Source: Patescibacteria group bacterium
Lineage (GTDB): Bacteria > Patescibacteriota > Microgenomatia > Levybacterales > UBA12049
Length of the DNA: 58,895 nucleotides
Assembly (NCBI GenBank): GCA_036392095.1
Contig: DASVYQ010000110.1
Coordinates: forward strand, 1 to 58,895
Reading direction: 5' to 3'
This document shows, piece by piece, positions 32,801 to 49,403 of the stretch. The position numbers and the translations under genes are program-made. Numbering within the stretch: position 1 is the stretch's first letter; every line of letters begins with the position of its first letter. The notes under the pieces are model-generated. The model was not told the origin of the DNA, made no database searches, and saw only the letters and a list, made by a program, of their open reading frames with translations.

Positions 32801-35800
32801 GGTGGAGGCTGTACCTGCAGGAATACTGCCATTTGCCAGGCCAAATACTTGGAATGCACTTCCTGTACCCGTTCCGCCAACAGCTAGATCAAGTGCAGAC
32901 CATGTTGGGGAGAGAACTGATCCATTTAATTGCCAATATCCATCGGTTCCTCCTGTAATTGGTGTATGGATGTTTTTTACATATAAATTGTTCCATGCAT
33001 CGCCAGGTGCGCCAATATTTGCAGAGCCATCACTTCCGGGTAAGATATTGCCAGAGGTATCGATAGATGTTTTTACAGCTGTTGCACCTGTACTGTTAAC
33101 TAAAAGACCTGAATTTACCTGCAACTGTGTTGCAACACCTTGTAAAACTACACTGTTTGGTAGGGTAAAGGAGCCTCCGATAGTCAAGCTGCCTGCATTG
33201 GTAATAAAGTTGGTTCCGCTAAAGAATTGAATATTACCTCCGCTTGAGGTTGTGCCAAGAGTAACTGTGCCTGTTCCTGCATAAATAGCTAAAGGATTAT
33301 TACTAGTTGTTGTTAAAACAGGATTTGTGCCAGAGAAGGTGGTTGTTAAACTATTTATGAATAAGTTACTTCCTGTACCCCCATTAAGAGGTGAAAGTGT
33401 TATGTTTCCGGTTGTATTACCACCAATAGTTATATTATTATTTTGTGCTCCTTGAATTGTTCCATTCCCAATAAGAGAAAGAGCTCTGTTTGTTCCATCT
33501 TGTGCAGAAACAGATGCTGTTGGTGTGCCTCCTGAAATATTCAATACTGCAAATTTAGCTGATTGGGTTGCATTAGTTGTATCTGTTACTCCAACTAAAA
33601 CATCTAATGTATTATTAATAGGATATAAGGTTCCATTTGCAGAATTTAAGACCCAATTGGAACCTCCGGTTCCAGATCCGCAAGCACCCCAGGTTGGTGT
33701 ACCTCCGCCAGTTGATTGCAAACATTGATTTGTTCCGCCTGCAGTTGTTTGTGTAAATACACCATTTGAATCTGTAAAGAATATTCCGCCACCAGTTTTG
33801 TATTTGGTCGATGCTAATGTGCCGTCATTTTCAATAGTAAATCTGGTTGTTCCAGAAGAGGAAGCAGAGAATATGTCTCCACTCCCAGAAAGATTTTGTT
33901 GATTAACAACTAATGCTCCATTGCCATAGGTAGTTGTACCAATGGTTACTGTTCCATAAGGTTGCAACGTTACAAGGGTGCCAGAATCCCATGTATTGCC
34001 ATATGTGGTTTGTAATCTAATCCCATGGCTGCTAGCTCCTTGAAATATTGCATACTGTCCATCATATCCAATAAATGCTCTATTATTAGCGCTTATATAC
34101 GTTGTTGAATTTGTATTATCTCCCAAAAATACACTATTGCCTGTTTTAGCCACTTGAAGCGGTGCATTAGGAATTGCAGTTCCTACGCCAATATTGCCTG
34201 ATTGGGTTATTACGAATCGTGTTTGGCCAGAAGAAGAGGCAGTAATTAGATCTCCTAAGGTATTTGTAACAATAAAGCCAGCAAAGTTTGTGGTGGCAGC
34301 AACAGTTGCTGCAGGACCGTTAAGATCGCTTCCAAAGGCTTGGAAAGTGGCGGATGCTGTTCCATTTCCACCAACTGCTAAGTCATTGGCAACATTTGAT
34401 GGGGTAATAACATTGTTTGCCAATTGCCAGAAGCCTTCTGTTCCTCCTGCAACCGGCAAATAAATATTATTTGTATTAATCGCTACGCCATAAATATTTC
34501 TCCATCGCAAAGTAGAGGAGCCTAAGTCAAAAAGATTGTCGTTGTTTGGACCAACATGTCCTGCAACTTGTAATTTAAAACTGGAAGGATTTGTTGTTCC
34601 AATACCAACTGAGCCTGCAACAACCAAAGAATTCCCGACAGAATTAGGATCTAAGAAATATGCGGTATTATTAATATCATAAAAGCTTGCTGCTTGTACT
34701 TGTCCGGTGTTATCTACAGTGAATTTAGCAGTTCCAGAGACAGAAGCGCTAATGAGCGGACCTGTTGAATCCTGCTCTATAGTAAAGGCTGATTGACCAC
34801 TTGATGTAGCAAGGATTGAGGCAATAGAGTCGATTTCTACTGCTCCTAAGGCAGTACTTATATTTCCGGTAAATGATGTATTTTGTAATGGTCTGAATAC
34901 GTCTATTTTCCCGAGGCCGTCTGGATTTAATTGTATGTCTCCATTGCTTCCTGCATTGGTTGCAAGTATTGTCGTTTGACCGGTTAATTTAATATTGCTT
35001 GATGTTGCTTGAATGGTCGTTGTTGGATTAGTTGAACCTGGAATAGCCACAACTCCGGAGGAGTTAAGGGCTAGCACTGCATTTGCATTACTGACAACTG
35101 AAGCATCTGTAATGGGCGGCAAGCCTTGTAGGACTTCGGCATTCGTTGCATAGGCAACTGTTGCAATTTGTTGTCTGGGGGTTAATTCTGGTGTGCTTTC
35201 TACGGTTACTCCCATGTATAATCCACTATTTTGCGCAAAAAGACTTTGCGGGATTCCACAAGCTCCAGTTGCCGGACTGCTTGGAGGATTGCCGCTGTTG
35301 CAAAGGGTAGCATTGCCGCCGGTACCGTTACTTCCTAAAAGCAAAGAAAAAATTCCGTCTGTATCTGGACTTACTCTATCGACCTCTTCCCATAAACGGG
35401 CACCAGCTGAGGCTGTCGGATCGTTGTAGATAACAAATCTTAAGTTGGTTGCAGTGGTAATAGGGTTACCGTTATTGTCAGTCAGTCTTCCTTGAAAAGA
35501 TAAAATTCGCAAAGGCGCCACTGGGGCAGCTGCCAAAACAGGTGATTTAGCACCTCGGCTTCCAATAAGAGCATAGTAAGCAGTAAATCCAATAACTGTT
35601 GAAAGAACAATTAAGACAGCCAAATTAAAATATCTGGCTAATGCTAGAGTATGATATCTTCTATACCATTCTGGTCTAGTAAATCTTACATGAAACCATA
35701 CTTTTTGAAACCAAGTAAAGTTTTTGGTAGACATTTTGGTTGGAGCATATAATTCTTTTGGTAAATTAGTAACCCGAGATGGCTTTTTTATAACAAAGCG

Positions 35801-36730
35801 TGATAATTTTCTGTCAAAAACAGGTTTGCCTCGTAATTCCCAGATTCGATTTGAGGCCAAATTTATCAGAGAGAACAGCCAAGTGACAATAATTTTTTCA
35901 ATCAAGAAATCTAGTCCTGACAGGCTTTTTTGAAGTAATCGAATTGGAGGAAATGGAGAATAGCTTGGTGCAGCTTGCTCTTCTTTAACCCTTGGTTTCT
36001 CAGTTACTATAACAGGTGTTTCCTTAGATAAAATAGCCTCAATTGTGCTCTGAGAAAGGGTTGTTACTTCTGGTTTTTTCACAAAACTAATATGTGCTTT
36101 AGAATCAGTAATGATTCCTTGTTCTTTTGCCCATGAAAGATATTTGCGTAAAGAAGAAAGTTTTCTGTTGATTGAGCTTGCAGAGAAGATGTTTTGACTA
36201 TACAAACGATCTCTGTATGTCTCTAACAGCTTATTAGAAACACTGTTTAATATTTCTTGATCAGTTACGTCTTGTCCGTTTTCATTTTTTGCAACTTCTT
36301 TTGCCCAGGCAAAAAATTGTTTTACATCAATGATATAGTTTTTTATAGTTAGAGCAGAAGCGTTATAGACATACAAAAAGTTTTTAAAAGCTTTTAGCCT
36401 AAAAGGATCTGCTTCTTCAATTGTTTCTTTCGGAGTGTCAGAAAAAGGATCATGTGAAATAATTCCTTCGATTTTTAAGAAGTGAAAAAACTTACGAAGC
36501 GAAGAAACGTAGCGCTCAATAGAACTGATTGCTGTTTCTGAAGCAAAAGCATCTTTAAACTGTTGGATTGTCTCATAAGAGACTTCTTGTGCTTTAAATT
36601 CTTGGTTAAATGTGTTCTGAAACCAAGAAATAAATTTTCTAATATCTGCCAAATAATTTTTCACAGTTAATTGTGACGGAGAATTTTGTTGAGAAAGTAA
36701 ATATTTTTTAAAAAGATCTAGTAAATACAT
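26840..36730 (-). CDS. Giant (~3,300 aa) single-pass membrane / surface fibre protein
   Basis: The reading frame is uninterrupted. The longest ORF starts at a TTG at 36847. I prefer the ATG at 36730 (MYLLDLFKKYLL...) because two TATAAT hexamers (36787-36782 and 36778-36773) lie inside the extension. Residue numbers below count from 36847. The layout is two Phage_int_SAM-like domains (aa 40-250), a TM helix (aa ~404-429), then Gly/Thr/Asn/Ser-rich tail-fibre-like repeats. Confidence 0.9.
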   Translation of the reverse strand: MYLLDLFKKYLLSQQNSPSQLTVKNYLADIRKFISWFQNTFNQEFKAQEVSYETIQQFKDAFASETAISSIERYVSSLRKFFHFLKIEGIISHDPFSDTPKETIEEADPFRLKAFKNFLYVYNASALTIKNYIIDVKQFFAWAKEVAKNENGQDVTDQEILNSVSNKLLETYRDRLYSQNIFSASSINRKLSSLRKYLSWAKEQGIITDSKAHISFVKKPEVTTLSQSTIEAILSKETPVIVTEKPRVKEEQAAPSYSPFPPIRLLQKSLSGLDFLIEKIIVTWLFSLINLASNRIWELRGKPVFDRKLSRFVIKKPSRVTNLPKELYAPTKMSTKNFTWFQKVWFHVRFTRPEWYRRYHTLALARYFNLAVLIVLSTVIGFTAYYALIGSRGAKSPVLAAAPVAPLRILSFQGRLTDNNGNPITTATNLRFVIYNDPTASAGARLWEEVDRVSPDTDGIFSLLLGSNGTGGNATLCNSGNPPSSPATGACGIPQSLFAQNSGLYMGVTVESTPELTPRQQIATVAYATNAEVLQGLPPITDASVVSNANAVLALNSSGVVAIPGSTNPTTTIQATSSNIKLTGQTTILATNAGSNGDIQLNPDGLGKIDVFRPLQNTSFTGNISTALGAVEIDSIASILATSSGQSAFTIEQDSTGPLISASVSGTAKFTVDNTGQVQAASFYDINNTAYFLDPNSVGNSLVVAGSVGIGTTNPSSFKLQVAGHVGPNNDNLFDLGSSTLRWRNIYGVAINTNNIYLPVAGGTEGFWQLANNVITPSNVANDLAVGGNGTASATFQAFGSDLNGPAATVAATTNFAGFIVTNTLGDLITASSSGQTRFVITQSGNIGVGTAIPNAPLQVAKTGNSVFLGDNTNSTTYISANNRAFIGYDGQYAIFQGASSHGIRLQTTYGNTWDSGTLVTLQPYGTVTIGTTTYGNGALVVNQQNLSGSGDIFSASSSGTTRFTIENDGTLASTKYKTGGGIFFTDSNGVFTQTTAGGTNQCLQSTGGGTPTWGACGSGTGGSNWVLNSANGTLYPINNTLDVLVGVTDTTNATQSAKFAVLNISGGTPTASVSAQDGTNRALSLIGNGTIQGAQNNNITIGGNTTGNITLSPLNGGTGSNLFINSLTTTFSGTNPVLTTTSNNPLAIYAGTGTVTLGTTSSGGNIQFFSGTNFITNAGSLTIGGSFTLPNSVVLQGVATQLQVNSGLLVNSTGATAVKTSIDTSGNILPGSDGSANIGAPGDAWNNLYVKNIHTPITGGTDGYWQLNGSVLSPTWSALDLAVGGTGTGSAFQVFGLANGSIPAGTASTSGYLTFTGSASQVNLLNNGSLGFYNSVGGNAGITTSKPALYIANTGYVGLGTTNPTANLTVQGNANSIAGLGAEMITNAADRTFSSNTGNWTDSTSWHIIGNGFAQKDTVGANNLTLTNSALSAAPASGNTYQISFAYTSTASSSGSITFSFGSTAANNAYADGPSQSGTDTEIITAAGAGSLIFQPSNNWYGTITSVSVKQLTSNSAPVAKLLNSDGTAGLELRSGGSGLNNSFIGVNSGLSVTTGNDNVGLGNYSLQNNTSGQLNAAIGYQALKLNTSGIDNTAVGATALTLNTSGQDNTAIGQQSLNGNTTGSYNTAIGSLALNINTAGANSVAVGYGAGYGNVTGAYSNDVFVGYETSWAANSLPTNSTQLGYKAGYNTGGTANTLLGYQAGYDLSSGNYNIALGQNVDLPSNTSNQQLNIGNLIYGTGLYNGNTVSSTPVTNGTVGIGIASPIAKLEVAGNTSLSLANGNTTDLAAFDDSTFTNLFRVTATGGIEQIGGQNTPFGGIGNYENLMIYSQGAFSGSAYSGYWSLPTTTDNATQSAAPDGTYTATQAITPSSWPVGSSQGYVQNITSFPNSGPYTVSIWLKGAVGGESVQLGANDSNSGNIFTLTTTWKRYTYSTNNLTASGSPRGFQIKLWSLNSTYYLWGAQAERRNYPGVYIATTSSPVVPSPAGYNAGLVINATGSAIFAGKVGIATNSAQYTLDVNGDIRSTGYTRDQIGGVAGANMIPLSADGWSNSTSFWKLITGQAATITTVATNSAVPTGIVHQFTNSSLAGWYYIDQLIPVDPQRTYYGRIWAVRTSGTGTFYAGYIAYDQNLNVLHGNGGTYGYFIASAQNPTASGTWYYGKVQGEGTANTTFPVGTRYIKPLIIVNYNTGGTMQVSMPEISDRPFEQDNNTYDIATSGISRLYVDPTGNVGIGTTANLGNAELVVNQPNLAGTNGDIITASYSGQTEFTVKSSGQLQARSFYDLDNTNYFLDPNALTTAMAVAGSVGVGTTAPDQKLEVYNSGATYMHINSTTQQVWVGAAVGGGSFNSITVANDNQIIYGGQSIGTANGLVIAPWMNATSGIRLDGNGNVGIGTTSEPNPLTVKGGTLTAATSSTYAFSAGNTNASDITLGSDASFGYMQTWNSKPLLLNSQGNNVGIGTTGTPRSKLDVYGDLTVGTGTISGDYGMINFPSSDNDNGFIYACSTQNGGCATNTFDLRVYLQDDNDDSETFSIWGGSCANGGCSQGTTNAAEHAWISAAGNASFSGKVTVGGTSGVVWSAGSSYEAFVTSTSNLYITDTGHTSPPTINVQKNQHVCISCFNADPKILQVGAACLNIGSNTCGDVAEYYHASSATDKGDIITIDNDSSASANVDTTGKLVKKAAVAYDKGLLGVVSTNPAITIEGNSVGLMAGGYTAEPLHPAVAEIGKVPTKVSTINGPIHSGDRITSSSIPGIGMKATQDGVTIGPALEDFDPAHNLGQQIVCPSDAPPGVVCGLIYVYMQTGEYNPNSQLANTNEFSLQQIGATAYQILDNLGNVVTHVDTYSQALIASLQAGFVQAQHIATNSLAVATNNITIAGQSLQDYIITVVQNAGLVSSTHIISPLAEIDTIHTNIISPLSNTGNISLSFEDNTLSIRNGTTTNSAVVAQIDNSGNATFSGTLNSENLAVNSDATVSGTLHAGRIVANEIDGLSAAVGTLSAQNITNVTNIYFATPSSDIANAGTASAQNLASSYSPTLPGGYTNLASFSAYLAYVPQLSATTATFAQGLMSLGPTSLSDTTITGQLSIGAQFILSDNSINVLGGDLQLQPLAQGGVSIAAGQVKIDQNGNLTVNGKAVFNSSLAVKVLSPLPNQDLSVQLGDSNNPNPSSQFKVTNATGSAVFAVNQLGDVVASGTATVAKLNLELAPPAYAVSDTEVQATGSAGTTQINSYQKEITIDNPLVTDKSLIYITPVGDTGQIPVLMRQVPGISFTVGIPQPNATATQFNWLIVN

Positions 36731-37378
36731 AGGGCAGTGTGAAAATTGTGAAAATAAGTAGCTAGCTTCAAAATTATACAGATTATACGTTTTATCATGA
36801 AACCTACTACTATTAATAAGCGTAGAAAGTATACACCTAGTTGTCAAGAACCTAGAGTGAAAACAGATTCAAAATAATTGAATGCAGATTTATATATTTT
36901 GATACGGTTGTGAAAAGGGAGGGACAGGCATTAAATCTTGTAAAAAGTGTAAAAAAATTAGAATAGGTAATTCGGGAATTCGATAAATGTTATACTTTTA
37001 CAATATCTAAATATATCATTGAATATCAAATATAAAGAAAATTTAAATGATAGGGAATGATATAGTTATTTTACTCTTTTTGCTAAATTGTAAAGTTGTT
37101 CTTGTTTTATTCGATTTTTTCTTAAGAAAAATTAATTATGAACACTGTTTTTTAAACTAATTTTAATTGCTTATTGGGTCTAAAAAATAATATGAGATAG
37201 TAATTAGCAAAAGAAGAAAGACAGTGACAAAAAATGGCACTAGTAGTTTTGGCCTATTCGTATTATCTAAAATTAATGCTAAGAGAGAAAAGTGGATTAA
37301 GAAAGAATAGTGAAGGAATTTACTATTGAATTATTGTACTTTGGCTTCTTTCTCTATACAATAAGAGTAACCTAATCT

Positions 37379-38254
37379 ATGAAAAATAACAAGCTGCCCC
37401 TTGTTAACCTATTTATTGCTATTTTGTTCGCATTTTTAACTGCGGTGCCAGCATATGCAAGTAGCACTGGCAATGCTTCCTCAGATGTAAGCGCAACTGT
37501 TGGTCAATATTACTTAGATGTTTCCGGATATATTGCCCCTTTTGCATCAATTGTGCTTCTCTCTAATGATCAGCCTCTTCGAACAACAGTCGCAGATTCT
37601 CAAGGATATTTTTCTTTGTCTCAAGTATTGGTTAGTAAAGGGTTTTCTGGATTTTGTTTAGATGCAGTGGATGTAAAGAGGCTAGGAGAGTCCTACAAGT
37701 GTTTTACATTTGCGCCTTTAACCAACAGCCTTTCTATGAAGAATTTGTTTTTACCGCCAACCTTGGGGCTTCAAAGAACCGAAATTACCCAGGGTGACCA
37801 AGCTGTTATCTGGGGATACAGCATGCCTAATGCTACCGTGGTCGTTCACTTAAGCAATGGACAAACATTTACAACTACTGCAGATAACACAGGATATTAT
37901 GAAGTAAAAACAACCATAGCGAAGGCTGGTCAATATGAATTGTATGCCGATGCTACATTCCAGAATAAAAAGTCTCTTATTCCGGACAGAAAAGTCACAC
38001 TTTTAGCACTCTCAACAAGCGAGCAAATAGCAAAAGCAGGATTAAATTGGCTTACCAATCTAATCAATTTCTTGCTTGGCAGCCCATGGGGAATAGTGCT
38101 AGCTATTTTACCTATTTTTATCCTTATTCTTATACTTATTTACAAGCTCAAGCCCGAATGGTTTACGGTTATTGACCAAAAATTTCACCAAGTAGCCTCG
38201 CATATTCCATTTTTCCCTCATAGGTTGCACCATTGGTGGTTTGTAGGGTATTGA
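37379..38254 (+). CDS. Secreted protein with two Ig-like / carboxypeptidase-regulatory-like domains and a C-terminal TM anchor
   Basis: It has a signal peptide (AILFAFLTAVPAYA). Two repeats are VSGYIAPFASIVLLSNDQPLRTTVADSQGYFSL and IWGYSMPNATVVVHLSNGQTFTTTADNTGYYEV. The TM helix is GIVLAILPIFILILILIY. Confidence 0.6.
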   Translation: MKNNKLPLVNLFIAILFAFLTAVPAYASSTGNASSDVSATVGQYYLDVSGYIAPFASIVLLSNDQPLRTTVADSQGYFSLSQVLVSKGFSGFCLDAVDVKRLGESYKCFTFAPLTNSLSMKNLFLPPTLGLQRTEITQGDQAVIWGYSMPNATVVVHLSNGQTFTTTADNTGYYEVKTTIAKAGQYELYADATFQNKKSLIPDRKVTLLALSTSEQIAKAGLNWLTNLINFLLGSPWGIVLAILPIFILILILIYKLKPEWFTVIDQKFHQVASHIPFFPHRLHHWWFVGY

Positions 38255-38780: not shown

Positions 38781-38801
38781 TAAGCGTCTAGAATGCCCTA
38801 G
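38781..38801. repeat. 21-bp repeat, inverted copy of 48117-48137
   Basis: TAAGCGTCTAGAATGCCCTAG is the exact reverse complement of CTAGGGCATTCTAGACGCTTA at 48117-48137. It contains the TAG stop codon of the 38798-39766 gene. Confidence 0.9.
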
Positions 38802-39766
38802 AACGCGTTTTCATGAGGATCAAGGGAAGATAGGTCATCTTCATGTTTGTTTTTTCTCCTTCTATATAATAGGAATGCCAGAACGATTGCTATGAGTACT
38901 AATGCAATAACAGTTGCGGCTCTCCATGGAAATACCCAGAAAACAAGTGTTGCGCTAAGTGGTAAATTGCCTCCTGTGCCATAACTTCCTAAAAGTGTTG
39001 CCGTAAAACGGCCTATCATAAGCTTTGTCCCGAGCGTATTTATATAATCACGTGCAATGCCTCCTGGAAAAATATTCCCCTGAGGCAATTCAGCAGTTGC
39101 AACAACTCTTCCAAGCATGTCTTTTACTGTAATTGTTGCTTGGGGAGTAATATGCAAATCCCCAAAATTTTTAATTTCGGTTTGTATTTTAATAGGGCCA
39201 TATTCAGAAAAATTAGGTGCGGTAAATTTGGTTACTTTGGCAGATTCATTAATGGTTCCTTTTATGTCAATATAGACAAGTGTAGCTATCTGTGTTTGGA
39301 TTTTTGCTCCAACTGATGGCTGACCAGATTGATTAACCGGTTGATAGATAAGTGCTGCATAATGGCCACCGGCTCCGGCATCTTGTGGAACTTGAATGTA
39401 GTAATTAAAGTCAAATCGTTGGTGTCTCTTTACGGTAAATTCTTCAGGGTACACGGCAATCCAGTTAGCTGCACTGTATTTGTTATTTAGTATGGTGTTT
39501 CGTGGCAAAACTTGAGGTGTTCCATTATTGTCAGTAACAATAAAGTCATAGACTCCTGTTATAAAGGTCATATCGGTATCTGAATCATTAATAATTCCGA
39601 GTCTTCCTTCTGTTTTGTCTCCAGGGTTAAGCGTAACTTCAATCTTGGGTGGGGTTATAGTAACTTGTTGTAACTCTTGTGCATTTGTTTGAGAAACAAA
39701 CAAAAGTATGGCAAGTCCCATGGCTATAATTGATATTGTTTCTCCAATTATTTTTATAATTTTCAT
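38798..39766 (-). CDS. Signal-peptide, C-terminally TM-anchored surface protein (DUF916/DUF3324-like layout), paralog B
   Basis: I prefer the ATG at 39766 (MKIIKIIG...), 1 nt after the upstream stop (TAA-T-ATG). Motifs are QQVTITPPKIEV, IINDSDTD, GGHYAALIY, GPIKIQTEIKN and VKDMLGR. The TM helix is followed by a basic YRRRKNK tail. Confidence 0.6.
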   Translation of the reverse strand: MKIIKIIGETISIIAMGLAILLFVSQTNAQELQQVTITPPKIEVTLNPGDKTEGRLGIINDSDTDMTFITGVYDFIVTDNNGTPQVLPRNTILNNKYSAANWIAVYPEEFTVKRHQRFDFNYYIQVPQDAGAGGHYAALIYQPVNQSGQPSVGAKIQTQIATLVYIDIKGTINESAKVTKFTAPNFSEYGPIKIQTEIKNFGDLHITPQATITVKDMLGRVVATAELPQGNIFPGGIARDYINTLGTKLMIGRFTATLLGSYGTGGNLPLSATLVFWVFPWRAATVIALVLIAIVLAFLLYRRRKNKHEDDLSSLDPHENAF

Positions 39767-39767
39767 A

Positions 39768-41207
39768 TTAGAACGTGGTCGATGCCACATATGTTATTGT
39801 TGTATGGTAATCGCCAGGTGGTGTTGTTCCTTGAGGTGAAGCTGCATATTCAATATAGAATGTGTCTCCGCTGGTTGCCGGTCCTGAGACAGAACTAACA
39901 AGCGTGTAATAATATTGAGCAGAAGGATTAGCATAAAAATTGCTGCTTCCTGTTCCTGCACCCCACTTAGTTGTATTAATCTTTGCTTGAGCACTTAAAT
40001 CGCAAGGGTGAATACCAAACCTATTGCTTCCAGCTGTAATTGTGGCTGTAGCAGTATTTGGAGCAGGCGTGTCATTATTGGTTGGTGTTCCTTGAGCATC
40101 TTGAATAGCATATCCGTTAGCAGGATTAAGCAAATGTCCAGATGAAGTGGCAGTAATGGTATAGCCATTAATTGCATTAGAGGTTATAACCATTTTTTGG
40201 GCTGCAATATTAACATTTGTTGCCAAAAGAGTGCCTAAGTTAACATTAGTAGAAGTAGATGCAAAGCCGGAATTTGTTGTGTCATTGTTGGTTCCTCCGT
40301 CTGTACATAAAGAAGTAAGTGAAGTGCCGTTAGCAACTCCTGTAATAACAAAAGTAAATGTTGGATCAATATGAGCAGTAACTGTTACAGATTCAACCGT
40401 TCCGACTTTAATTTTTGTATTGTCTAATACATTACTTGAAGCATCGGTTGTATTAATATTTACTGCCCAGGTGTCTGCTGTTCCTGCGGTTGCTGACTTA
40501 GTTGGATTAATAAGTGTTGGTACCTGGTTTGCAACTGCGCAAGACGTTCCGGCAGTTGTACAGCCAACAAGAATTGTTACTGTTGTTCCTGCAGAAACAG
40601 CTGCTGTTCCAACAGTGCAGGTAATTGTTGGAGCAGAGCCTGCTGCTGTTCCGGTTATTGCAAAAGTACATGTAGATGTGCCGGTAGAGAAATTAGCTTT
40701 AATATTACTCGTAGAAAGTCCGTTAAACATAAATGTAGAAGCAGAAGGAGAAGCTTGATTAGTATCAGAGCTGTTAGAAGTGGGGAATGAAATAACAATT
40801 GTTCCACTGGTTGGAATATTTGTTTGCGTTGTAAACTGAATTGCGTGTACAGCTGTTATTGCAGTAGAAACAACAGTTCCATTGGCATGGGCTTGCGTTG
40901 CAGTTGCCGTAAAGTAAAGAGTTGTTGCTGCGGCAGATACTGTTGCAACATTCAAACTTTCTCCTGTTTGACCCCAAAAATGTGCAGAATCTGATGCTAA
41001 AAACGTTGAGCCATTATTAACAATACTTGCTTGAGCATCTCCTACACTGACATTTGCAGATAGAGGAGTGGAAGGCGAAGGGCGTGAAGTTGTAATGGTG
41101 TCTGATGCCGATCCCAGCGTTGCAGCATGTGCTTTAGGCACAGCAGCAAAAAATATTGCAAAGATTCCCAATAGCAAAAATCCCCATTTATGGGCAAGCA
41201 AGGACAT
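39768..41207 (-). CDS. Secreted Thr/Ala/Ser-rich beta protein with a shared C-terminal domain ending YVASTTF
   Basis: It has a signal peptide (FFAAVPKAHA). Its C-terminal half is homologous to the 42260-43003 product (FTFVITG, VNLGTL, NGYTITA, HLLNP, FGIHPCD, PPGDYHTTITYVASTTF). Confidence 0.6.
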   Translation of the reverse strand: MSLLAHKWGFLLLGIFAIFFAAVPKAHAATLGSASDTITTSRPSPSTPLSANVSVGDAQASIVNNGSTFLASDSAHFWGQTGESLNVATVSAAATTLYFTATATQAHANGTVVSTAITAVHAIQFTTQTNIPTSGTIVISFPTSNSSDTNQASPSASTFMFNGLSTSNIKANFSTGTSTCTFAITGTAAGSAPTITCTVGTAAVSAGTTVTILVGCTTAGTSCAVANQVPTLINPTKSATAGTADTWAVNINTTDASSNVLDNTKIKVGTVESVTVTAHIDPTFTFVITGVANGTSLTSLCTDGGTNNDTTNSGFASTSTNVNLGTLLATNVNIAAQKMVITSNAINGYTITATSSGHLLNPANGYAIQDAQGTPTNNDTPAPNTATATITAGSNRFGIHPCDLSAQAKINTTKWGAGTGSSNFYANPSAQYYYTLVSSVSGPATSGDTFYIEYAASPQGTTPPGDYHTTITYVASTTF

Positions 41208-41275
41208 ATATTATTATATGGAGAAAATAAGACTATCTGTCAAGTATATATGTGATAATAAAAATTAAAAATTTA

Positions 41276-42256
41276 TTAAATTTTTTTGTTTTCGCGGATT
41301 TTTCGTTTTATATGATAGAAAATAGCGGCTCCAATAAGACACAGCAAGATTAGTATAATAAAAAAACTAATAGGAAATGCAACAAAATATATCGTTTTAG
41401 TAAAAAGTGGACCAGTACTTGATAGAGCTACTGTTAGCGTTGCAGAATAGAGTCCAAAAACAAATGTTTCTGGCCAAATAGCTTTTTCTAAAGATCCAGA
41501 TTTATTATCTGGTAAAAACCGATTTGTGTTTGCCAATATATTTACAGGTAAAAGTTGTATATGACCAACAGCTTGTCCAAACATATTTTTTACAACAATG
41601 TCGCCTTTAGGTACAATGAAAAAATTGCTTGTATTTTGTACGCTTGTGGTAAATGCAATTGGGCCATGTGTTGTAAACCATGGGGTAGAGAACTCGTTTA
41701 ACAATCCTGTTGTATTGCCTTTTGGTCCAATAGAAAGCAGCACATTTATACCAATGCCCGCTGTCGTTGAGGCTGTTGTCGCATTTGCTAAATTTTGTCC
41801 ATGTGAAAGGAAAAGAATGGTAAAGTAATAATCCGAAGGAGGTTCATCTGAAGGAATACCAATATGCAGTAATAAGTTCTTTTGTTGCTGGGGAGCAAGC
41901 GTTAGCTTTGTTATAACACTTGAGCCATCATAAATCTGCATTTTTGAAAAAATATCTGGATCTGCTCCGGGCATTTGTTGACCATCTGGTAAAAAAGATA
42001 CTTCACCATTTCCTTTTTCAGATGAAGTAAATGGTTTAAGCACAATATCTAAATCAATTGGAGCATCACTGCTGTTAACGATGGTAAATGGAGCCTTGAC
42101 ACTTGCGGGAGCATCGGTATTAATTTGTAAAATTGGCGGATATACCTCTAATGATACTTGCTGTGCGAAAGCAGGACGTATAAAAAATGGGATAATCATT
42201 GGTACGCCAAGCAAAACAATCAAATTTTTTATAATAAAAATTTTCATAGTTCTCAT
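41276..42256 (-). CDS. Signal-peptide, C-terminally TM-anchored surface protein (DUF916/DUF3324-like layout), paralog A
   Basis: Motifs are QQVSLEVYPPILQI, IVNSSDAPID, PPSDYYFTILF, GPIAFTTSVQN and VKNMFGQ. The TM helix is followed by an HIKRKIRENKKI tail. Confidence 0.6.
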   Translation of the reverse strand: MRTMKIFIIKNLIVLLGVPMIIPFFIRPAFAQQVSLEVYPPILQINTDAPASVKAPFTIVNSSDAPIDLDIVLKPFTSSEKGNGEVSFLPDGQQMPGADPDIFSKMQIYDGSSVITKLTLAPQQQKNLLLHIGIPSDEPPSDYYFTILFLSHGQNLANATTASTTAGIGINVLLSIGPKGNTTGLLNEFSTPWFTTHGPIAFTTSVQNTSNFFIVPKGDIVVKNMFGQAVGHIQLLPVNILANTNRFLPDNKSGSLEKAIWPETFVFGLYSATLTVALSSTGPLFTKTIYFVAFPISFFIILILLCLIGAAIFYHIKRKIRENKKI

Positions 42257-42259
42257 ATA

Positions 42260-43003
42260 TTAAAATGTAGGCGTTGCTACATAATTAATTTGATTTAGAT
42301 AATTTCCCGGCGCTTGTGTGCCAGAAATGTTAGCCTTAAATGTAATTGTTGCTTGTGCATTCTTAACAAGATTAGTTCCTGATAATACACTTTGCGGTGT
42401 TTGCGAAAATTCTTTATTTGCAAATGGGGCATAGTAGTTGGCAGTAGTAAATACACATGGAGTGCCGCTGACATTATCGCATCTGTATCCAAAACCATAC
42501 GTGAGAGGATTGGTCCAAGTTGAAGGAGTAGAAGCAGTACATGTTCCGCTGTCACAAGTTGTATCGGGAATTCTTGAACCAGAATCCGGGCGAAGTAATT
42601 GATGATTTTCTTGAGCAGTTACGCTATATCCATATGCCGAACCATTGGTTATGGTTAGTGTTTGGGTTCTGGTAACAGGATTGCTGGCAGTTAGCGTACC
42701 AAAATCTATGACTTGGGACGAAACAATAAATTTAAATCTGACAATTGAGGAAATGTATTGAAATCCTGCCTTAATAATATAATTTGTTCCGGTATATTGC
42801 CCTGCCCCTAATTGTCCGCCTGTATCCTGCAGCACAAATCCAGAACCTGATTTTCTTCCTGCAAAGCTATTTAAATTGCCCATTTGCAGCAAATAAAGGG
42901 AGTTAGACATATTGAGAGCATGTGCATGCAACGTAGTTGCAATAAAAAATCCAAAAAAAGAAAGAATTCCTATTGTAATTTTTAGGCGGGCAGAGTGTTT
43001 CAT
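42260..43003 (-). CDS. Secreted beta protein with a shared C-terminal domain ending YVATPTF
   Basis: I prefer the ATG at 43003 (MKHSARLK...), 1 nt after the upstream stop (TAA-T-ATG); the track start is 43024. It has a signal peptide (ATTLHAHA), three SxxY/FxL-type N-terminal repeats and four Cys. It ends APGNYLNQINYVATPTF. Confidence 0.6.
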   Translation of the reverse strand: MKHSARLKITIGILSFFGFFIATTLHAHALNMSNSLYLLQMGNLNSFAGRKSGSGFVLQDTGGQLGAGQYTGTNYIIKAGFQYISSIVRFKFIVSSQVIDFGTLTASNPVTRTQTLTITNGSAYGYSVTAQENHQLLRPDSGSRIPDTTCDSGTCTASTPSTWTNPLTYGFGYRCDNVSGTPCVFTTANYYAPFANKEFSQTPQSVLSGTNLVKNAQATITFKANISGTQAPGNYLNQINYVATPTF

Positions 43004-43004
43004 A

Positions 43005-43640
43005 TTACTTTTTTGATTCTTCACGGAGTTCTTCTGTTTCTTCTAAGATTTCATTTAATTTTTCTATATCTTTGTCTTTCAAAACTTTTTTTTCTTCCTG
43101 CAAAACATGTTCTATATCTTTAGAAATGGTATCTGCTGCATCTTTTGTTCTTTCTTCCATGGATTCAATAATTTGTTCTTCTTTATCTCGGTCTTGATAT
43201 TCACGGCCAAAAAAGTAAGCAAGAGGAGAGATAAGTAAAATAGAGCCAAGACGAACAAAGCTTTCTATTGACCCGTTTTTTATTGCTTCAGGCATAAATA
43301 CTGCTATGGTTCCAAGTGCAAAAATAAAAACAGAAACAGGCTCAAAAATAAAGGTTATGCCAAACCCTAAAAAGTATAACAAGAAAAAGAGTGGAGAATA
43401 GATATTTCCGGTGATCCCAATTATAAGTAGTATAGCGGTGTTAAGAATAAAAATATCAGAACTGCTGCTAAATCTTTCGGCATGAGGGTTTCTTTTGCTT
43501 CGAATAAAAGAAATAACCATATATGCTAACACCAAAATACCCAGTGCCTGAACAGTAAAATCAGACAAAAGTGTTTGCTTCCAAATAAATACAATAATAA
43601 AAGAAACAACTAAAATAACTCCATGCCAAAGTGTCTTCAT
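43005..43640 (-). CDS. Polytopic (~5 TM) membrane protein with an acidic coiled-coil C-terminal tail
   Basis: 211 aa and the first gene of the operon. The tail is DRDKEEQIIESMEERTKDAADTISKDIEHVLQEEKKVLKDKDIEKLNEILEETEELREESKK. Confidence 0.55.
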   Translation of the reverse strand: MKTLWHGVILVVSFIIVFIWKQTLLSDFTVQALGILVLAYMVISFIRSKRNPHAERFSSSSDIFILNTAILLIIGITGNIYSPLFFLLYFLGFGITFIFEPVSVFIFALGTIAVFMPEAIKNGSIESFVRLGSILLISPLAYFFGREYQDRDKEEQIIESMEERTKDAADTISKDIEHVLQEEKKVLKDKDIEKLNEILEETEELREESKK

Positions 43641-43699
43641 ATTTGTATAGTAGGGAAAAATGACTTCAAAAGCAAGAATTTTATGCTATACTTACAGGT

Positions 43700-46232: not shown

Positions 46233-47459
46233 ATGCAACAGAATACTTCAGGGAAACAAGTAGGTTCGCTCGGTGCTGAACGAGAGACAAGGACCCCACG
46301 TGTAAATGGTACGCAGTTAAATTTATCTCCCCTTGCTCAACAGGTTTTAACTTTTGATGAAATTGCCTCTTTAGGCAGAATGACTGAAATTCCGGTACGT
46401 CCCAATTTTACTACAGATGCTCTGAATGATTTAAATAGAGCATTATTTGCATTGCCTGCTGATACTGCATTTGGCGGATCTGGATTATCTCCGTTTTTCG
46501 TAGAAATTCCATCAGTACAACTCGCCTTAGTGCATGCAATTGAGTCGCATTTGACGCATAGAGGTAGAAAACCAATTAGAGTTTTAGAAATAGCAGCCGG
46601 GGTAAGAAATCGCTGGCGACATCTGACTCAAACAAGAAGTAGATTTGATGTAACTTTAACCGATTTTGCTCCTCATATATTACCGCTAAATGCAGAAAGA
46701 GAAGTGGGAAGTAATATAACGCTTACAACTGGAGCATATGATTTGAATCAAAACTTACAGGTTTCTCATGCAGATGGTGGGCGTTTTGACGTAGTATTGG
46801 GTACTTATGCATTTGATAGCGTTTGGTTACCTGGAGACAGAAGATATGTAAAAACGAAAAATGGCCAATGGCATGTTTCTTCTTACAGAATTAATGTTCC
46901 AGATTATTTTGATGCACAAGAAAAAGCAGCTGTTTTAGTGGCATTAAGAACAGGAGTTTGGGAAAACACAGAGGGACTCTCTTTATTGGGACTTTTAAAA
47001 AAACTTGAAATTGCAGAAAGGCTGGAGCCTGTTGATATGCAACAAGTTCCTTTTGGTCAAGAAATTTTACAGCGGTATGATAATTTGACAACTGTAGAAA
47101 TAAATTTTCCTGGCGGTCTTATCCAACGAGTGCAAGAAGCCTTTGAAACCACAATAGCTTCAGGTGGAATCTTTGTAATAGGTGATGTAGCAGTCATTAA
47201 TGATCAGTGCTACACAGAATTGTCTGGTAGCTCAAATCATCAACTTACAAGGCAGTATATTAAGGGCTATTATACTAGCGGAAGTGCCGAAAAATATAAT
47301 GTACAAGACTTTGGTTTGGCAAAACAAATTTTAGAAGCCCAAGGATTCAGAGTAAATATTTATAATGCCAGAGAGTATGCTATGCGCTTTGCAGATAGGG
47401 AGCAGAGAAACCAATTGCAGGTCGAAGGAAATCAGTATATTATGGTGGTAAGTAAATAA
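46233..47459 (+). CDS. Hypothetical protein, possibly a class I SAM-dependent methyltransferase (MidA/DUF185-like layout)
   Basis: VLEIAAGVRNRW is motif-I-like, followed by FDVVLGTYAFDSVWLPGDRRYVK. By eye it is more GC-rich than its neighbours. Confidence 0.35.
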   Translation: MQQNTSGKQVGSLGAERETRTPRVNGTQLNLSPLAQQVLTFDEIASLGRMTEIPVRPNFTTDALNDLNRALFALPADTAFGGSGLSPFFVEIPSVQLALVHAIESHLTHRGRKPIRVLEIAAGVRNRWRHLTQTRSRFDVTLTDFAPHILPLNAEREVGSNITLTTGAYDLNQNLQVSHADGGRFDVVLGTYAFDSVWLPGDRRYVKTKNGQWHVSSYRINVPDYFDAQEKAAVLVALRTGVWENTEGLSLLGLLKKLEIAERLEPVDMQQVPFGQEILQRYDNLTTVEINFPGGLIQRVQEAFETTIASGGIFVIGDVAVINDQCYTELSGSSNHQLTRQYIKGYYTSGSAEKYNVQDFGLAKQILEAQGFRVNIYNAREYAMRFADREQRNQLQVEGNQYIMVVSK

Positions 47460-48085
47460 TGGAAACTATATTCTTAAAACTAGTTTCCCTTCTGAAAAAA
47501 GTTCCAAAATACTATTTTTTACCCCTTGGAGTTGCTTGTATTGGTTTGATCCTTTTTGTACAGGGTATGATAGTATATTTCCAAAATCCACAAGGCGAAG
47601 AAATGACAATTCCCGAAACAAAAATTGCCGAAAAAAGTTCTGTGAAAACCGTGAAAACAATAATTGTAGATGTGGAAGGAGCTGTTTTTAAAAGCGGTGC
47701 ATACACAATTCCCGAAAATAGCCGTGTGCAAGATGCGCTCATTGCAGCTGGTGGAATTAGTGTAGATGCAGACCAAAAATATTTTGAGCAAAAAATAAAT
47801 TTGGCTGCTAAATTAGTTGATGGTGCAAAAATTTATATTCCAAGAACTGGAGAAAGTATCTTAGATAGTGGCGCAGAAACAGCAACCGTGGGGCAGCAGC
47901 AAACACCAATAAATATTAATACTGCTTCTTTGGCTGTCTTAGACAGCTTGCCAGGCATTGGGCAAACATTAGCACAAAGGATAATTGATAGCAGGCCTTA
48001 CCAGGCTATAGAAGATTTGGTAACAAAAAAAGTTTTAGGGCAGAAAGTATTTGACAAAATTAAGGATCAATTAAGCGTTTATTAG
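47459..48085 (+). CDS. comEA: ComEA-family DNA receptor (SLBB plus helix-hairpin-helix)
   Basis: It has an N-terminal TM helix, an SLBB-like region (IVDVEGAVFKSGAYTIPENSRVQDALIAAGG) and an HhH motif (ININTASLAVLDSLPGIGQTLAQRIIDSRPY). The start overlaps the upstream stop (TAATG). Confidence 0.85.
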   Translation: METIFLKLVSLLKKVPKYYFLPLGVACIGLILFVQGMIVYFQNPQGEEMTIPETKIAEKSSVKTVKTIIVDVEGAVFKSGAYTIPENSRVQDALIAAGGISVDADQKYFEQKINLAAKLVDGAKIYIPRTGESILDSGAETATVGQQQTPININTASLAVLDSLPGIGQTLAQRIIDSRPYQAIEDLVTKKVLGQKVFDKIKDQLSVY

Positions 48086-48116
48086 TCTATAGTCGCTTTT
48101 TGCAGAAAATCGTTTC

Positions 48117-48137
48117 CTAGGGCATTCTAGACGCTTA
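48117..48137. repeat. 21-bp repeat, inverted copy of 38781-38801
   Basis: CTAGGGCATTCTAGACGCTTA lies in the comEA-comEC spacer. Confidence 0.9.
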
Positions 48138-48152
48138 AAAAAACTTTGTAGT

Positions 48153-49403
48153 ATGCCAAGGAAACTCTTATTTGCTCATTTGGTTTTATTATTCCTTTTT
48201 GGAATACGATTGTATCTGTTTTCTGCATTTTATCCTCAACTAGCTACAAATCAAGAAGTAATTTTTACCACAGCTATTCTTTCTCAGCCATCAGAATTTA
48301 GCAATTATAATATGCTTACTGCTAATTACGGGAATTTATTTAGTAAAAAGATTGTTACAGTAATCTATTCCAAAAATATTAGCTTGAATTATGGGCAGGT
48401 GGTGCGTATTTCTGGCAGAATAAGCAATAGAGTGATAAATACTAACCAGATTAGATCTACGATCTATTTTGCCAAAATTGAAGCTATTTCTGAAAATGCT
48501 AATTTTGTATTAGCAGTCTCTAATTTTATTCGCCAAAATGCAAAAAAAATCTTCCAAAAATACCTTTCGCCAAAAGAAACAGGACTTTTATTGGGGATTA
48601 TATTAGGGGAGAAAACAACTTTTTCAAAAGACTTTTTGCATAGCTTACAAGTTGCGGGAGTAATGCATGTTATAGCAGCATCAGGAATGAATGTTAGTTT
48701 AGTGGCAGGATTTTTGTTTTGGATGTTCTCTTCTTTTCTCAGTAGAAAAGCAGCTGTCTTGCTGACGCTTTTGGGAATTGTATTCTATGCTGTTTTGTCT
48801 GGCCTTGCAGCCTCAATTATACGAGCCACACTTATGGGAGTTGCAGCGCTTTTGGCACAACTGTGGGGAAGGCAATACAGCAGTCTATGGGGAATTGTGC
48901 TTGCGGTTTTTATAATGATTTTTGTAAATCCAAATTTTATACAAGATGTTGGGTTTCAGCTTTCAGTATTGGCAACAATAGGTATTTTTGGCATAAAACC
49001 TCTTTTTCCAAAGCATATATTTTTTGAAGATATCGAAACAACTATTAGCGCTCAAATTGCAACATTGCCAATTTTACTCTCAAATTTTGGAAATTTTGGC
49101 TTATTGTCTATTTTGGCAAATGCACTGGTACTTTGGATGATTCCAATACTTATGATTTTGGGATGTTTATCTGTTGCTGTTGGATTACTTATTCTGCCAT
49201 TGGGGAGTTTGCTTACTTTTATTGCAAAGCCGTTTTTACTATTCTTTATTTTTATTGTAGAAAACGTTGCAGCTGTTAGTCCATTAGTTTCAGTTGGTAC
49301 TTTACCGCAAATTTTGATAGTAGGTTACTACCTCTTGCTTTTTGCAACTATGTTGCTTCTAAATAAAAAGCCAAAATTAATTAACCAAGATACTGGCATG
49401 TAG
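48153..49403 (+). CDS. comEC: ComEC/Rec2 DNA-uptake channel (short form, no metallo-beta-lactamase domain)
   Basis: The competence-domain signature is GLLLGIILGEKTTFSKDFLHSLQVAGVMHVIAASGMNVSL. It is polytopic, only 416 aa, and ends inside the convergent kinase gene. Confidence 0.85.
   Translation: MPRKLLFAHLVLLFLFGIRLYLFSAFYPQLATNQEVIFTTAILSQPSEFSNYNMLTANYGNLFSKKIVTVIYSKNISLNYGQVVRISGRISNRVINTNQIRSTIYFAKIEAISENANFVLAVSNFIRQNAKKIFQKYLSPKETGLLLGIILGEKTTFSKDFLHSLQVAGVMHVIAASGMNVSLVAGFLFWMFSSFLSRKAAVLLTLLGIVFYAVLSGLAASIIRATLMGVAALLAQLWGRQYSSLWGIVLAVFIMIFVNPNFIQDVGFQLSVLATIGIFGIKPLFPKHIFFEDIETTISAQIATLPILLSNFGNFGLLSILANALVLWMIPILMILGCLSVAVGLLILPLGSLLTFIAKPFLLFFIFIVENVAAVSPLVSVGTLPQILIVGYYLLLFATMLLLNKKPKLINQDTGM

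Follow-up and report, generated by a model that had tools for sequence, protein, structure and literature searches.

Pam pili have been described in the candidate phyla radiation (CPR), whose bacteria are thought to depend on attachment to host cells and whose surface machinery is mostly unannotated. In Candidatus Mycosynbacter amalyticus, a Saccharimonadia parasite, PamA and PamB are the pilins of filaments seen by cryo-electron microscopy (cryo-EM), which are joined by donor-strand exchange with an inter-domain linker as the donated strand and which contain paired cysteines (Troman et al., bioRxiv 10.64898/2026.03.03.709456). According to the same preprint, the pam operon further encodes the single-domain PamT, PamE, and PamR, a membrane-anchored, RbmA-like terminator or anchor with an N-terminal strand, and PamC (WP_260763277.1) and PamD (WP_260763284.1) are PapD/FimC-like chaperones with a C-terminal transmembrane (TM) helix, for which a role in assembly was proposed from predicted structures. 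It also reports distant PamA homologs in Microgenomatia and a co-localized "tail fibre-like protein," and it regards the system as exclusive to CPR, with no relatives elsewhere. Here, we examine a contig of 58,895 nucleotides (nt) from the metagenome-assembled genome of a Patescibacteria group bacterium (DASVYQ010000110.1, assembly GCA_036392095.1; "the window"), whose best relatives are Levybacteria. On its minus strand, at 38798-43640, lie five genes, g1 to g5, which most likely build a thin adhesive surface fiber.

Two other systems are relevant to this cluster. One is the WxL/Csc type of gene cluster found in Lactobacillales and Listeria, which encodes WxLIP, a protein composed of DUF916, DUF3324, and a TM helix (Hassan et al. 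2023, PMC10599100; PDB 9i1y, 9i25). The other is the chaperone-usher pilus, with chaperones such as PapD/FimC, CsuC, CfaA, and Caf1M. We read the locus, with good confidence, as a compact, Levybacteria-type variant of the Pam pilus of CPR, that is, a chaperone-assisted, usher-less fiber assembled by donor-strand exchange in a single-membrane bacterium. The Pam system itself has already been described; what is new is the compact five-gene locus of Pam type and the homology between Pam-type chaperones and WxLIP. An initial annotation, made from the sequence of the window alone, had held that the module has no described counterpart in this kind of genome, a statement that the 2026 preprint and release 20 of NCBIfam have since superseded.

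Results and Discussion

Organization of the locus

The open reading frames (ORFs) and the sequence define the following genes:

43005-43640, minus strand: g1, 211 amino acids (aa), membrane protein
42260-43003, minus strand: g2, 247 aa counting from ATG, secreted protein (or 254 aa if the alternative GTG at 43024 is the start)
41276-42256, minus strand: g3, 326 aa, membrane-anchored protein
39768-41207, minus strand: g4, 479 aa, secreted protein
38798-39766, minus strand: g5, 322 aa (second ATG) or 330 aa (first ATG), membrane-anchored protein

In order, the gaps between them are 1, 3, 68, and 1 nt, and two of the junctions read TAA-T-ATG. Independent gene calls in two other assemblies of the locus contain the same five genes, and neither assembly has a Pfam match on record for any of the products. 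Hydropathy indicates N-terminal signal peptides in g2, g3, g4, and g5, and a C-terminal TM helix followed by a basic tail in g3 and g5. The secreted proteins contain paired cysteines, four in g2 and six in g4.

The sequence comparisons place the paralogy of g2 with g4, and of g3 with g5, far above chance. The C-terminal domains of g2 and g4 align by BLASTP with E = 3e-9 (31% over 168 aa) and by hhalign with E = 2e-17, against 0.004 for the reversed control. g3 and g5 align over their full length (BLASTP E = 5e-17), and their families do so by hhalign with E = 1e-38. The initial annotation had described this architecture, with its tight packing, its duplicated unit of a secreted and an anchored protein, and its predicted signal peptides, anchors, and cysteines, and our analysis agrees with it throughout. 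The motifs on which it drew can be read in the translations: g2 and g4 share FKFIV/FTFVI, IDFGTL/VNLGTL, GYSVTA/GYTITA, HQLLRP/HLLNP, FGYRCD/FGIHPCD, and the terminal PGNY..INYVATPTF/PGDY..ITYVASTTF, while g3 and g5 share IVNSSD/IINDSD, YYFTILF/HYAALIY, and VKNMFG/VKDMLG.

The secreted proteins g2 and g4

Both secreted proteins match the Pam models ("CPR-type pilus") of NCBIfam release 20. g2 matches the PamT model, NF058579, with E = 1.2e-11 and 44.5 bits (curated cut-off 240), a partial match that spans profile positions 8-127 of 241. It also matches the Pam_pilin_C model, NF058581, over profile positions 2-148 of 148 (E = 6.8e-6, 26 bits against a cut-off of 55). g4 matches NF058581 with E = 7.6e-7 and 29 bits (cut-off 55), and 27 of 39 members of the g4 family match it too, the best with E = 9e-14. 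Because these scores are below the curated cut-offs, the public record calls both proteins "hypothetical." The scores of the one locus titled Saccharibacteria (L078) likewise fall below the NCBIfam cut-offs. No Pfam family was found in g2 or g4, for which there are more than 747 and more than 329 homologs, respectively; the g2 homologs listed were all near relatives of Levybacteria type.

g4 is a candidate two-domain major pilin. Its signal peptide occupies aa 1-28 and is followed by an N-terminal domain of beta-sandwich type (aa ~29-270); a linker at aa 271-283 then leads to the Pam-pilin C-terminal domain (aa 284-479). The composition is rich in Thr, Ala, and Ser. The AlphaFold2 (AF2) monomer model, with a predicted local distance difference test score (pLDDT) of 87.9, is all-beta, with beta-rich regions up to about aa 270 and from aa 284. 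Between these regions lies the following element:

40359-40397, minus strand: inter-domain linker of g4, aa 271-283, ESVTVTAHIDPTF, candidate donated strand

The linker is coil in the monomer model, where the pLDDT dips to 71 between blocks at 90-91, and few segments of the family are as strongly conserved (ESVxVxATVDPxLTF); its hydrophobic residues follow an alternating pattern. By analogy with the donated linker of PamA and PamB, we infer that it is a candidate for the donated strand. The initial annotation had considered the YVA-x-TF terminus for this role, but that terminus probably forms the final strand of the acceptor domain; PamA and PamB donate a linker, and g4 has a conserved one.

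g2 is built differently. It has a signal peptide, a conserved N-terminal region of hairpin repeats, a Pam-pilin C-terminal domain (aa ~88-247), and four invariant cysteines, and it has neither the N-terminal domain nor the linker of g4. Because the acceptor domain is present and the other two elements are not, g2 fits an acceptor-only distal subunit, which makes it a candidate distal tip or initiator that would accept a strand and not donate one. A strongly conserved, hairpin-like triple repeat, "S/GxxY/FxL..G," makes up the first 60 residues of mature g2. As a separate observation, 9 of 29 PamT-like relatives of g2 weakly match the Ig-like (immunoglobulin-like) Pfam domain of GBS104, the tip pilin of a sortase pilus (best E = 1.4e-4).

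We also considered whether g2 and g4 are WxL-domain proteins, a reading that we rejected after several searches. The WxL family PF13731 was absent at E <= 1 from g2, g4, 39 relatives of g4, and 29 relatives of g2. Aligned by hhalign with seven WxL proteins, the C-terminal domains of g2 and g4, full or trimmed, performed no better than reversed controls, and a search of PDB with the g4- and g2-family profiles returned no meaningful match. A WxL hidden Markov model (HMM) gave no match at E <= 0.01. The proteins of the locus contain no W-x-L motif, as the initial annotation had noted, and the residues found at the analogous positions are Y or F without exception.

The anchored proteins g3 and g5

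The anchored proteins point in a second direction, to WxLIP. g3 comprises a signal peptide, a DUF916-like domain, a DUF3324-like domain, the C-terminal TM helix, and the basic tail. In the AF2 model of g5 (pLDDT 87.9), two beta-sandwich domains are followed by a long helix at the C-terminus; the TM helix starts at about aa 281 and is followed by the tail RRRKNK. In a Foldseek search of PDB with this model, the Enterococcus faecium WxLIP structures 9i1y and 9i25 came first (E = 4e-13 to 1e-12) and RbmA second, followed by the chaperones CsuC, CfaA, FimC, Caf1M, SafB, and DraB, with target-normalized TM-scores of 0.5-0.57. The profile of the g5 family had EfmWxLIP1 as its sole match in PDB (E = 7.5e-4).

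Sequence profiles agree with the predicted fold. The Pfam family WxLIP_PGBD (DUF916, PF06030) was matched by 22 of 43 members of the g5 family, with a best E of 6e-5. The WxLIP_PGBD scores of 12.6 and 13.4 bits lie under the gathering cut-off of 27.3. Because of these scores, g3 and g5 are, by sequence, outliers of WxLIP and not annotated members. From six annotated WxL loci in plasmid records of Enterococcus and Listeria, we built alignments of six WxLIP and seven WxL proteins. By hhalign, the WxLIP alignment matched the g5 family with a probability of 94.8% (E = 5.5e-8, 273 columns) and the g3 family with 96.8% (E = 2.1e-10, 273 columns). With the signal peptide and TM helix trimmed, the match had E = 4e-5 over 162 columns, and reversed-profile controls gave no match. 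In the reciprocal direction, an HMM of the six Firmicute WxLIP proteins, run against all 1,112 ORFs of 80 related CPR loci, gave 44 matches at E <= 0.01, of which all 44 belong to the g3/g5 family (14 of them to g3). Thus, profiles and models together support well that g3 and g5 are WxLIP homologs (DUF916 + DUF3324 + TM) with a PapD-like chaperone fold. No NCBIfam Pam chaperone model matches the g3/g5 family. Compared by description, g3 and g5 carry the chaperone architecture given for PamC and PamD in the preprint, where neither WxL nor DUF916 is mentioned, and we found no link between Pam chaperones and WxLIP in the literature searched.

These results bear on another possibility, in which the five products are unrelated envelope proteins rich in beta structure (for instance, of the S-layer or associated with the wall) or form a fiber of sortase or TasA type, and in which their likeness to Pam and WxLIP is that of a generic Ig fold. 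Such an explanation would account for the sub-threshold family scores and for the weak match of the g2 family to a sortase-pilus tip domain. Ig folds also attract many structural matches, and RbmA, Cep192, and ciliary proteins appear in the Foldseek results for g5. We consider it very unlikely, given the clean reversed-profile controls, the exclusive selection of g3/g5-family ORFs by the reciprocal HMM, and the coverage of the whole domain model by the NF058581 match. Moreover, the six proteins examined at the locus have no LPXTG sorting signal, there is no sortase at the locus, and no TasA or Peptidase_M73 family was listed at E <= 1 for the 39 g4 and 29 g2 relatives. One segment of g5 is superficially similar to LPXTG and near-invariant in the g5 family ("NLPLSAT," aa 267-280, 38926-38966, minus strand). 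Together with the TM helix and RRRK tail it might be taken for a sortase signal, which we rejected since the segment lies, in the model, inside the last beta-strand of domain 2 and is not found in g3.

The chaperone folds matched by g5 raise another alternative, a classical or archaic chaperone-usher pilus of the Pap/Fim/Csu type, with an N-terminal extension as the donor and an outer-membrane usher encoded elsewhere. The superposition of g5 on CsuC, CfaA, FimC, Caf1M, and SafB would be expected under it, and the mature N-terminus of g4 (SDTxTTSRPS) is strongly conserved. The locus shares with such pili the two-domain Ig-like chaperone fold, conserved C-terminal aromatic strands and disulfides in the subunits, and, presumably, the principle of donor-strand complementation and exchange. 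However, we regard a chaperone-usher pilus as extremely improbable here. Around the locus, the window contains no gene resembling an usher, and g3 and g5 are membrane-anchored, whereas periplasmic PapD-like chaperones have no anchor. Neither Fimbrial nor SCPU families were listed at E <= 1 among the same g4 and g2 relatives, so that no relation at the Pfam level is seen. The subunits also differ in having two domains, and the donor in g4 is probably the internal linker, not an N-terminal extension. CPR bacteria are not known to have an outer membrane.

The closeness of g3 and g5 to WxLIP, in sequence and predicted fold, is also an argument for the main alternative, a static complex of WxL/Csc type. 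In such a complex, each secreted protein would remain docked, noncovalently and 1:1, on an anchored partner of WxLIP type and would serve on the envelope as an adhesin or polymer binder, and no fiber would form. The gene layout mirrors this arrangement, with a small and a large secreted protein sharing a C-terminal domain (small WxL, large WxL) and an anchored partner. The translational coupling of each secreted gene to the gene for its anchored partner would also suit 1:1 docking. In addition, the homology of g3 and g5 with WxLIP extends across both Ig-like domains, and WxLIP has a TM anchor as they do. We nevertheless find a static complex unlikely, since g2 and g4 match the C-terminal domain of Pam pilins and not WxL, and since PamA and PamB, which have this domain, form filaments by cryo-EM (10.64898/2026.03.03.709456). 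The conserved, exposed linker of g4 has donor-strand character as well, and the locus has neither a W-x-L motif nor a small LPXTG protein of CscD type; it also comes from another phylum, and WxL proteins are described as peptidoglycan-bound, not as fibers. The resemblance to Csc/WxL loci proposed in the initial annotation is therefore genuine homology on the anchored side, as seen by profile, reciprocal HMM, and fold, and does not extend to the secreted proteins.

In the AF2 model of g5, a low-confidence loop (aa ~145-158) precedes a strand at aa 160-168. In the alignment, this region, a hairpin of domain 1, coincides with a hairpin of WxLIP; according to AlphaFold, the latter would insert into the WxL protein and so complete the WxL sandwich. 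The modeled strand at aa 160-168 is accordingly placed to be a candidate complementing strand.

Proposed assembly mechanism

Signal peptides, anchors, folds, and homologies come directly from the analyses above; strand complementation, fiber polarity, and the pairing of chaperones with subunits are our interpretation. In the compact Pam-type pilus that we favor, g2 to g5 would be exported by Sec, as their signal peptides indicate. g3 and g5 would be held in the cytoplasmic membrane by their C-terminal helix, exposing two Ig-like domains of WxLIP/PapD type, as the predicted fold and profile homology suggest. The hairpin strand of chaperone domain 1 would then temporarily complete the strand-deficient C-terminal Ig-like domain of the secreted subunits, a step that we propose by comparison with the PamC/D-pilin and WxLIP-WxL complexes predicted by AlphaFold and with the solved PapD-subunit complexes. 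The linker of an incoming g4 would displace the chaperone strand in the previous subunit, so that the fiber would grow from its base, and g2 would be located at the distal tip as initiator or adhesin. Because each secreted gene precedes its own chaperone gene, the order of the genes suggests that g3 serves g2 and that g5 serves g4. A conserved promoter before g4 would increase production of the shaft subunit, and an anchored Ig-like protein encoded next to the cluster (37379-38254) is the best candidate for a PamR-like base; both are described below.

The Pam system offers many parallels to this model. Both are found in CPR hosts. In each, the Sec-exported pilins contain paired cysteines and have in common a C-terminal Ig-like domain, which in g2 and g4 is presumably strand-deficient. 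The shaft pilin, for which g4 is the candidate here, consists of two domains joined by a conserved linker, and there is a small subunit, which in this locus is PamT-like. Both also have two paralogous PapD-like chaperones with a C-terminal TM helix, no usher, and a giant fiber-like protein as a regular neighbor. The initial annotation had offered a donor-strand fiber with an anchored Ig-like chaperone as its second option, and in view of the NCBIfam Pam matches and the Pam preprint, that option was essentially right.

The differences are also clear. The locus has five genes, whereas Pam has at least seven, with a single shaft pilin, g4, in place of PamA, PamB, and PamE, and with an additional conserved polytopic membrane gene, g1. 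PamR has no counterpart within g1-g5, only the convergent anchored Ig-like gene alongside. The flanking genes scanned include no ATP synthase genes, and the conserved neighbor is instead a divergent leucyl-tRNA synthetase (LeuRS) gene. Sequence similarity to Pam is low.

Several points weigh against the assignment to the Pam system. Every NCBIfam score of g2 and g4 is below its curated cut-off, and the PamT match of g2 covers only part of the profile. In the PDB profile search described above, no Pam chain was matched, and the whole-chain Foldseek search of PDB with the g4 model was uninformative, returning only multi-domain matches of low TM-score (integrins, CfaE/B, Saf). PamR, PamE, and a second shaft pilin are missing from the operon. 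The donor-strand and chaperone-strand assignments are based on conservation and model confidence.

The first gene, g1, would add a component to this scheme. Hydropathy agrees with the earlier description of a protein with about five TM segments and an acidic tail, which has 19 D/E and 11 K/R in 56 aa and is coiled-coil-like and cytoplasmic. Its conserved core is IFILNT..SPLFFLLYFL..FGIAFVFEP, and no relatives were found in Pfam, NCBIfam, or PDB. g1 may be an assembly platform or a regulator.

Relation to WxL/Csc clusters

A broader proposal gives Pam pili and the Firmicute WxL/Csc clusters a common origin, as two branches of an ancient single-membrane system whose anchored two-Ig chaperone (WxLIP, PamC/D, g3/g5) completes strand-deficient subunits and hands them over. 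We put this forward tentatively, as an idea that is possible but for now somewhat doubtful. The sequence comparisons support the chaperone side well, but homology between the Pam C-terminal domain and WxL is undetectable by sequence. By eye, the two share collinear short motifs (..FG.., G[WY]x[LV], and PGxYxxTxT[WY]x[LA]), and the alignment of these motifs (GWxL/GYxV, TWxL/TYVA) has no statistical support.

If the proposal is true, the Pam machinery is not exclusive to CPR, WxLIP acts as a chaperone of pilus type rather than as an adhesin that binds the host, and WxL proteins may exchange strands or polymerize. The WxLIP homology challenges the claim of the preprint that Pam has no relatives beyond CPR. 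It also links Pam chaperones to the WxLIP of enterococci, listeriae, and lactobacilli, which gives a testable strand-complementation hypothesis for WxL virulence and adhesion loci. As a minimal version, the five-gene locus should be easier to reconstitute than the Saccharimonadia operon.

A promoter-like element and probable transcription units

The 68-nt gap between g3 and g4 contains a promoter-like element, read from the sequence:

41213-41243, minus strand: TTGACA (41243-41238), 19-nt spacer, TATAAT (41218-41213)

The element stops 5 nt upstream of the g4 ATG, and a consensus promoter scanner missed it owing to the 19-nt spacer. A TTGACA box with a -10-like box (CATACT or TATAAT) at a spacing of 17-19 nt is the best match in 23 of 32 regions upstream of pilin genes, this window included. 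In the homologous gaps of loci L002-L073, the element has the form cTTGACA ... (C/T)ATA(A/C)T and is often located 5-10 nt from the ATG, a placement that suggests nearly leaderless pilin transcripts.

Since this conserved element precedes g4, the sequence indicates that g1-g5 probably form two transcription units, with a strong one for pilin and chaperone. A separate strong unit suits a subunit that is needed in large amounts. The "five-gene operon" of the initial annotation holds for the tight packing of the genes but has to be qualified in view of the element in the 68-nt gap. The count of intrinsic terminators inside the cluster was not above the shuffled expectation. A similar element, TTGCTT-N17-TACTAT, is found upstream of g1 (43641-43699), 6 nt from the ATG.

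Conservation and neighboring genes

We surveyed synteny in 80 loci from species-representative genomes, which were found with the chaperone alignment. All five genes are colinear in 38 of the 80 loci, and the pilin gene g4 is adjacent to the chaperone gene g5 in 64. A divergent LeuRS gene lies beside g1 in 33 loci. For the pilin, the chaperone, and the PamT-like protein alike, hundreds of relatives are recorded as "hypothetical," under the organism names Levybacteria, Shapirobacteria, and Microgenomates. A very large set of such genes could be annotated as a Pam-type pilus module; the chaperone profile by itself reached 11,984 clusters (50% identity) at E <= 1e-3.

Two neighbors accompany the cluster in most of the loci:

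37379-38254, plus strand: convergent gene for an anchored Ig-like protein, 291 aa (signal peptide, two domains of Ig type, TM helix at the C-terminus)
26840-36847, minus strand: giant ORF, 3335 aa

A homolog of the anchored Ig-like protein is present in 75 of the 80 loci, which makes it more constant than g1-g3, and in 32 of these it lies on the same strand beside pilin and chaperone. The protein matches Pfam CarboxypepD_reg (8.8e-8) and Big_6 (4e-6) and, in PDB, a Bap-like Ig repeat. It has a conserved cytoplasmic tail, LHHxWFxGY, and a conserved N-terminal VxAxVG that resembles VxATVD in the g4 linker. By analogy, it is a candidate PamR-like pilus base or anchor.

The N-terminus of the giant protein is found in 50 of the 80 loci, and the protein probably corresponds to the co-localized "tail fibre-like protein" of the Pam preprint. 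It begins with two phage-integrase SAM-like domains (Pfam, 5e-18), followed by hydrophobic segments and by a very long, repetitive, fiber-like region rich in Gly, Thr, and Asn. The fusion of a cytoplasmic, DNA-binding type of domain to a giant surface fiber is an oddity.

The composition of the locus varies among genomes. About a dozen have a short variant without g1-g3, which consists of the anchored Ig-like gene on the same strand, pilin, chaperone, and sometimes a second pilin (e.g. L030, L038, L039, L045, L049, L056, and L066). In some full loci (L009, L043, L050, and L053), one or two additional pilin genes follow g5. Dozens of records of metagenome-assembled genomes with a Levybacteria-type locus are titled "uncultured Gammaproteobacteria bacterium" and one "Clostridia bacterium" (L005-L007, L010-L012, L016, L024, L030, and others); these look like mislabeled submissions and not like a system outside CPR.

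Farther along the window, beyond LeuRS and a 408-aa protein without a family, ComEA-like (HHH_3/SLBB) and ComEC (Competence) genes lie at 47459-49403 on the plus strand. The window also encodes a GAF-PAS histidine kinase and several TPR proteins of large size.

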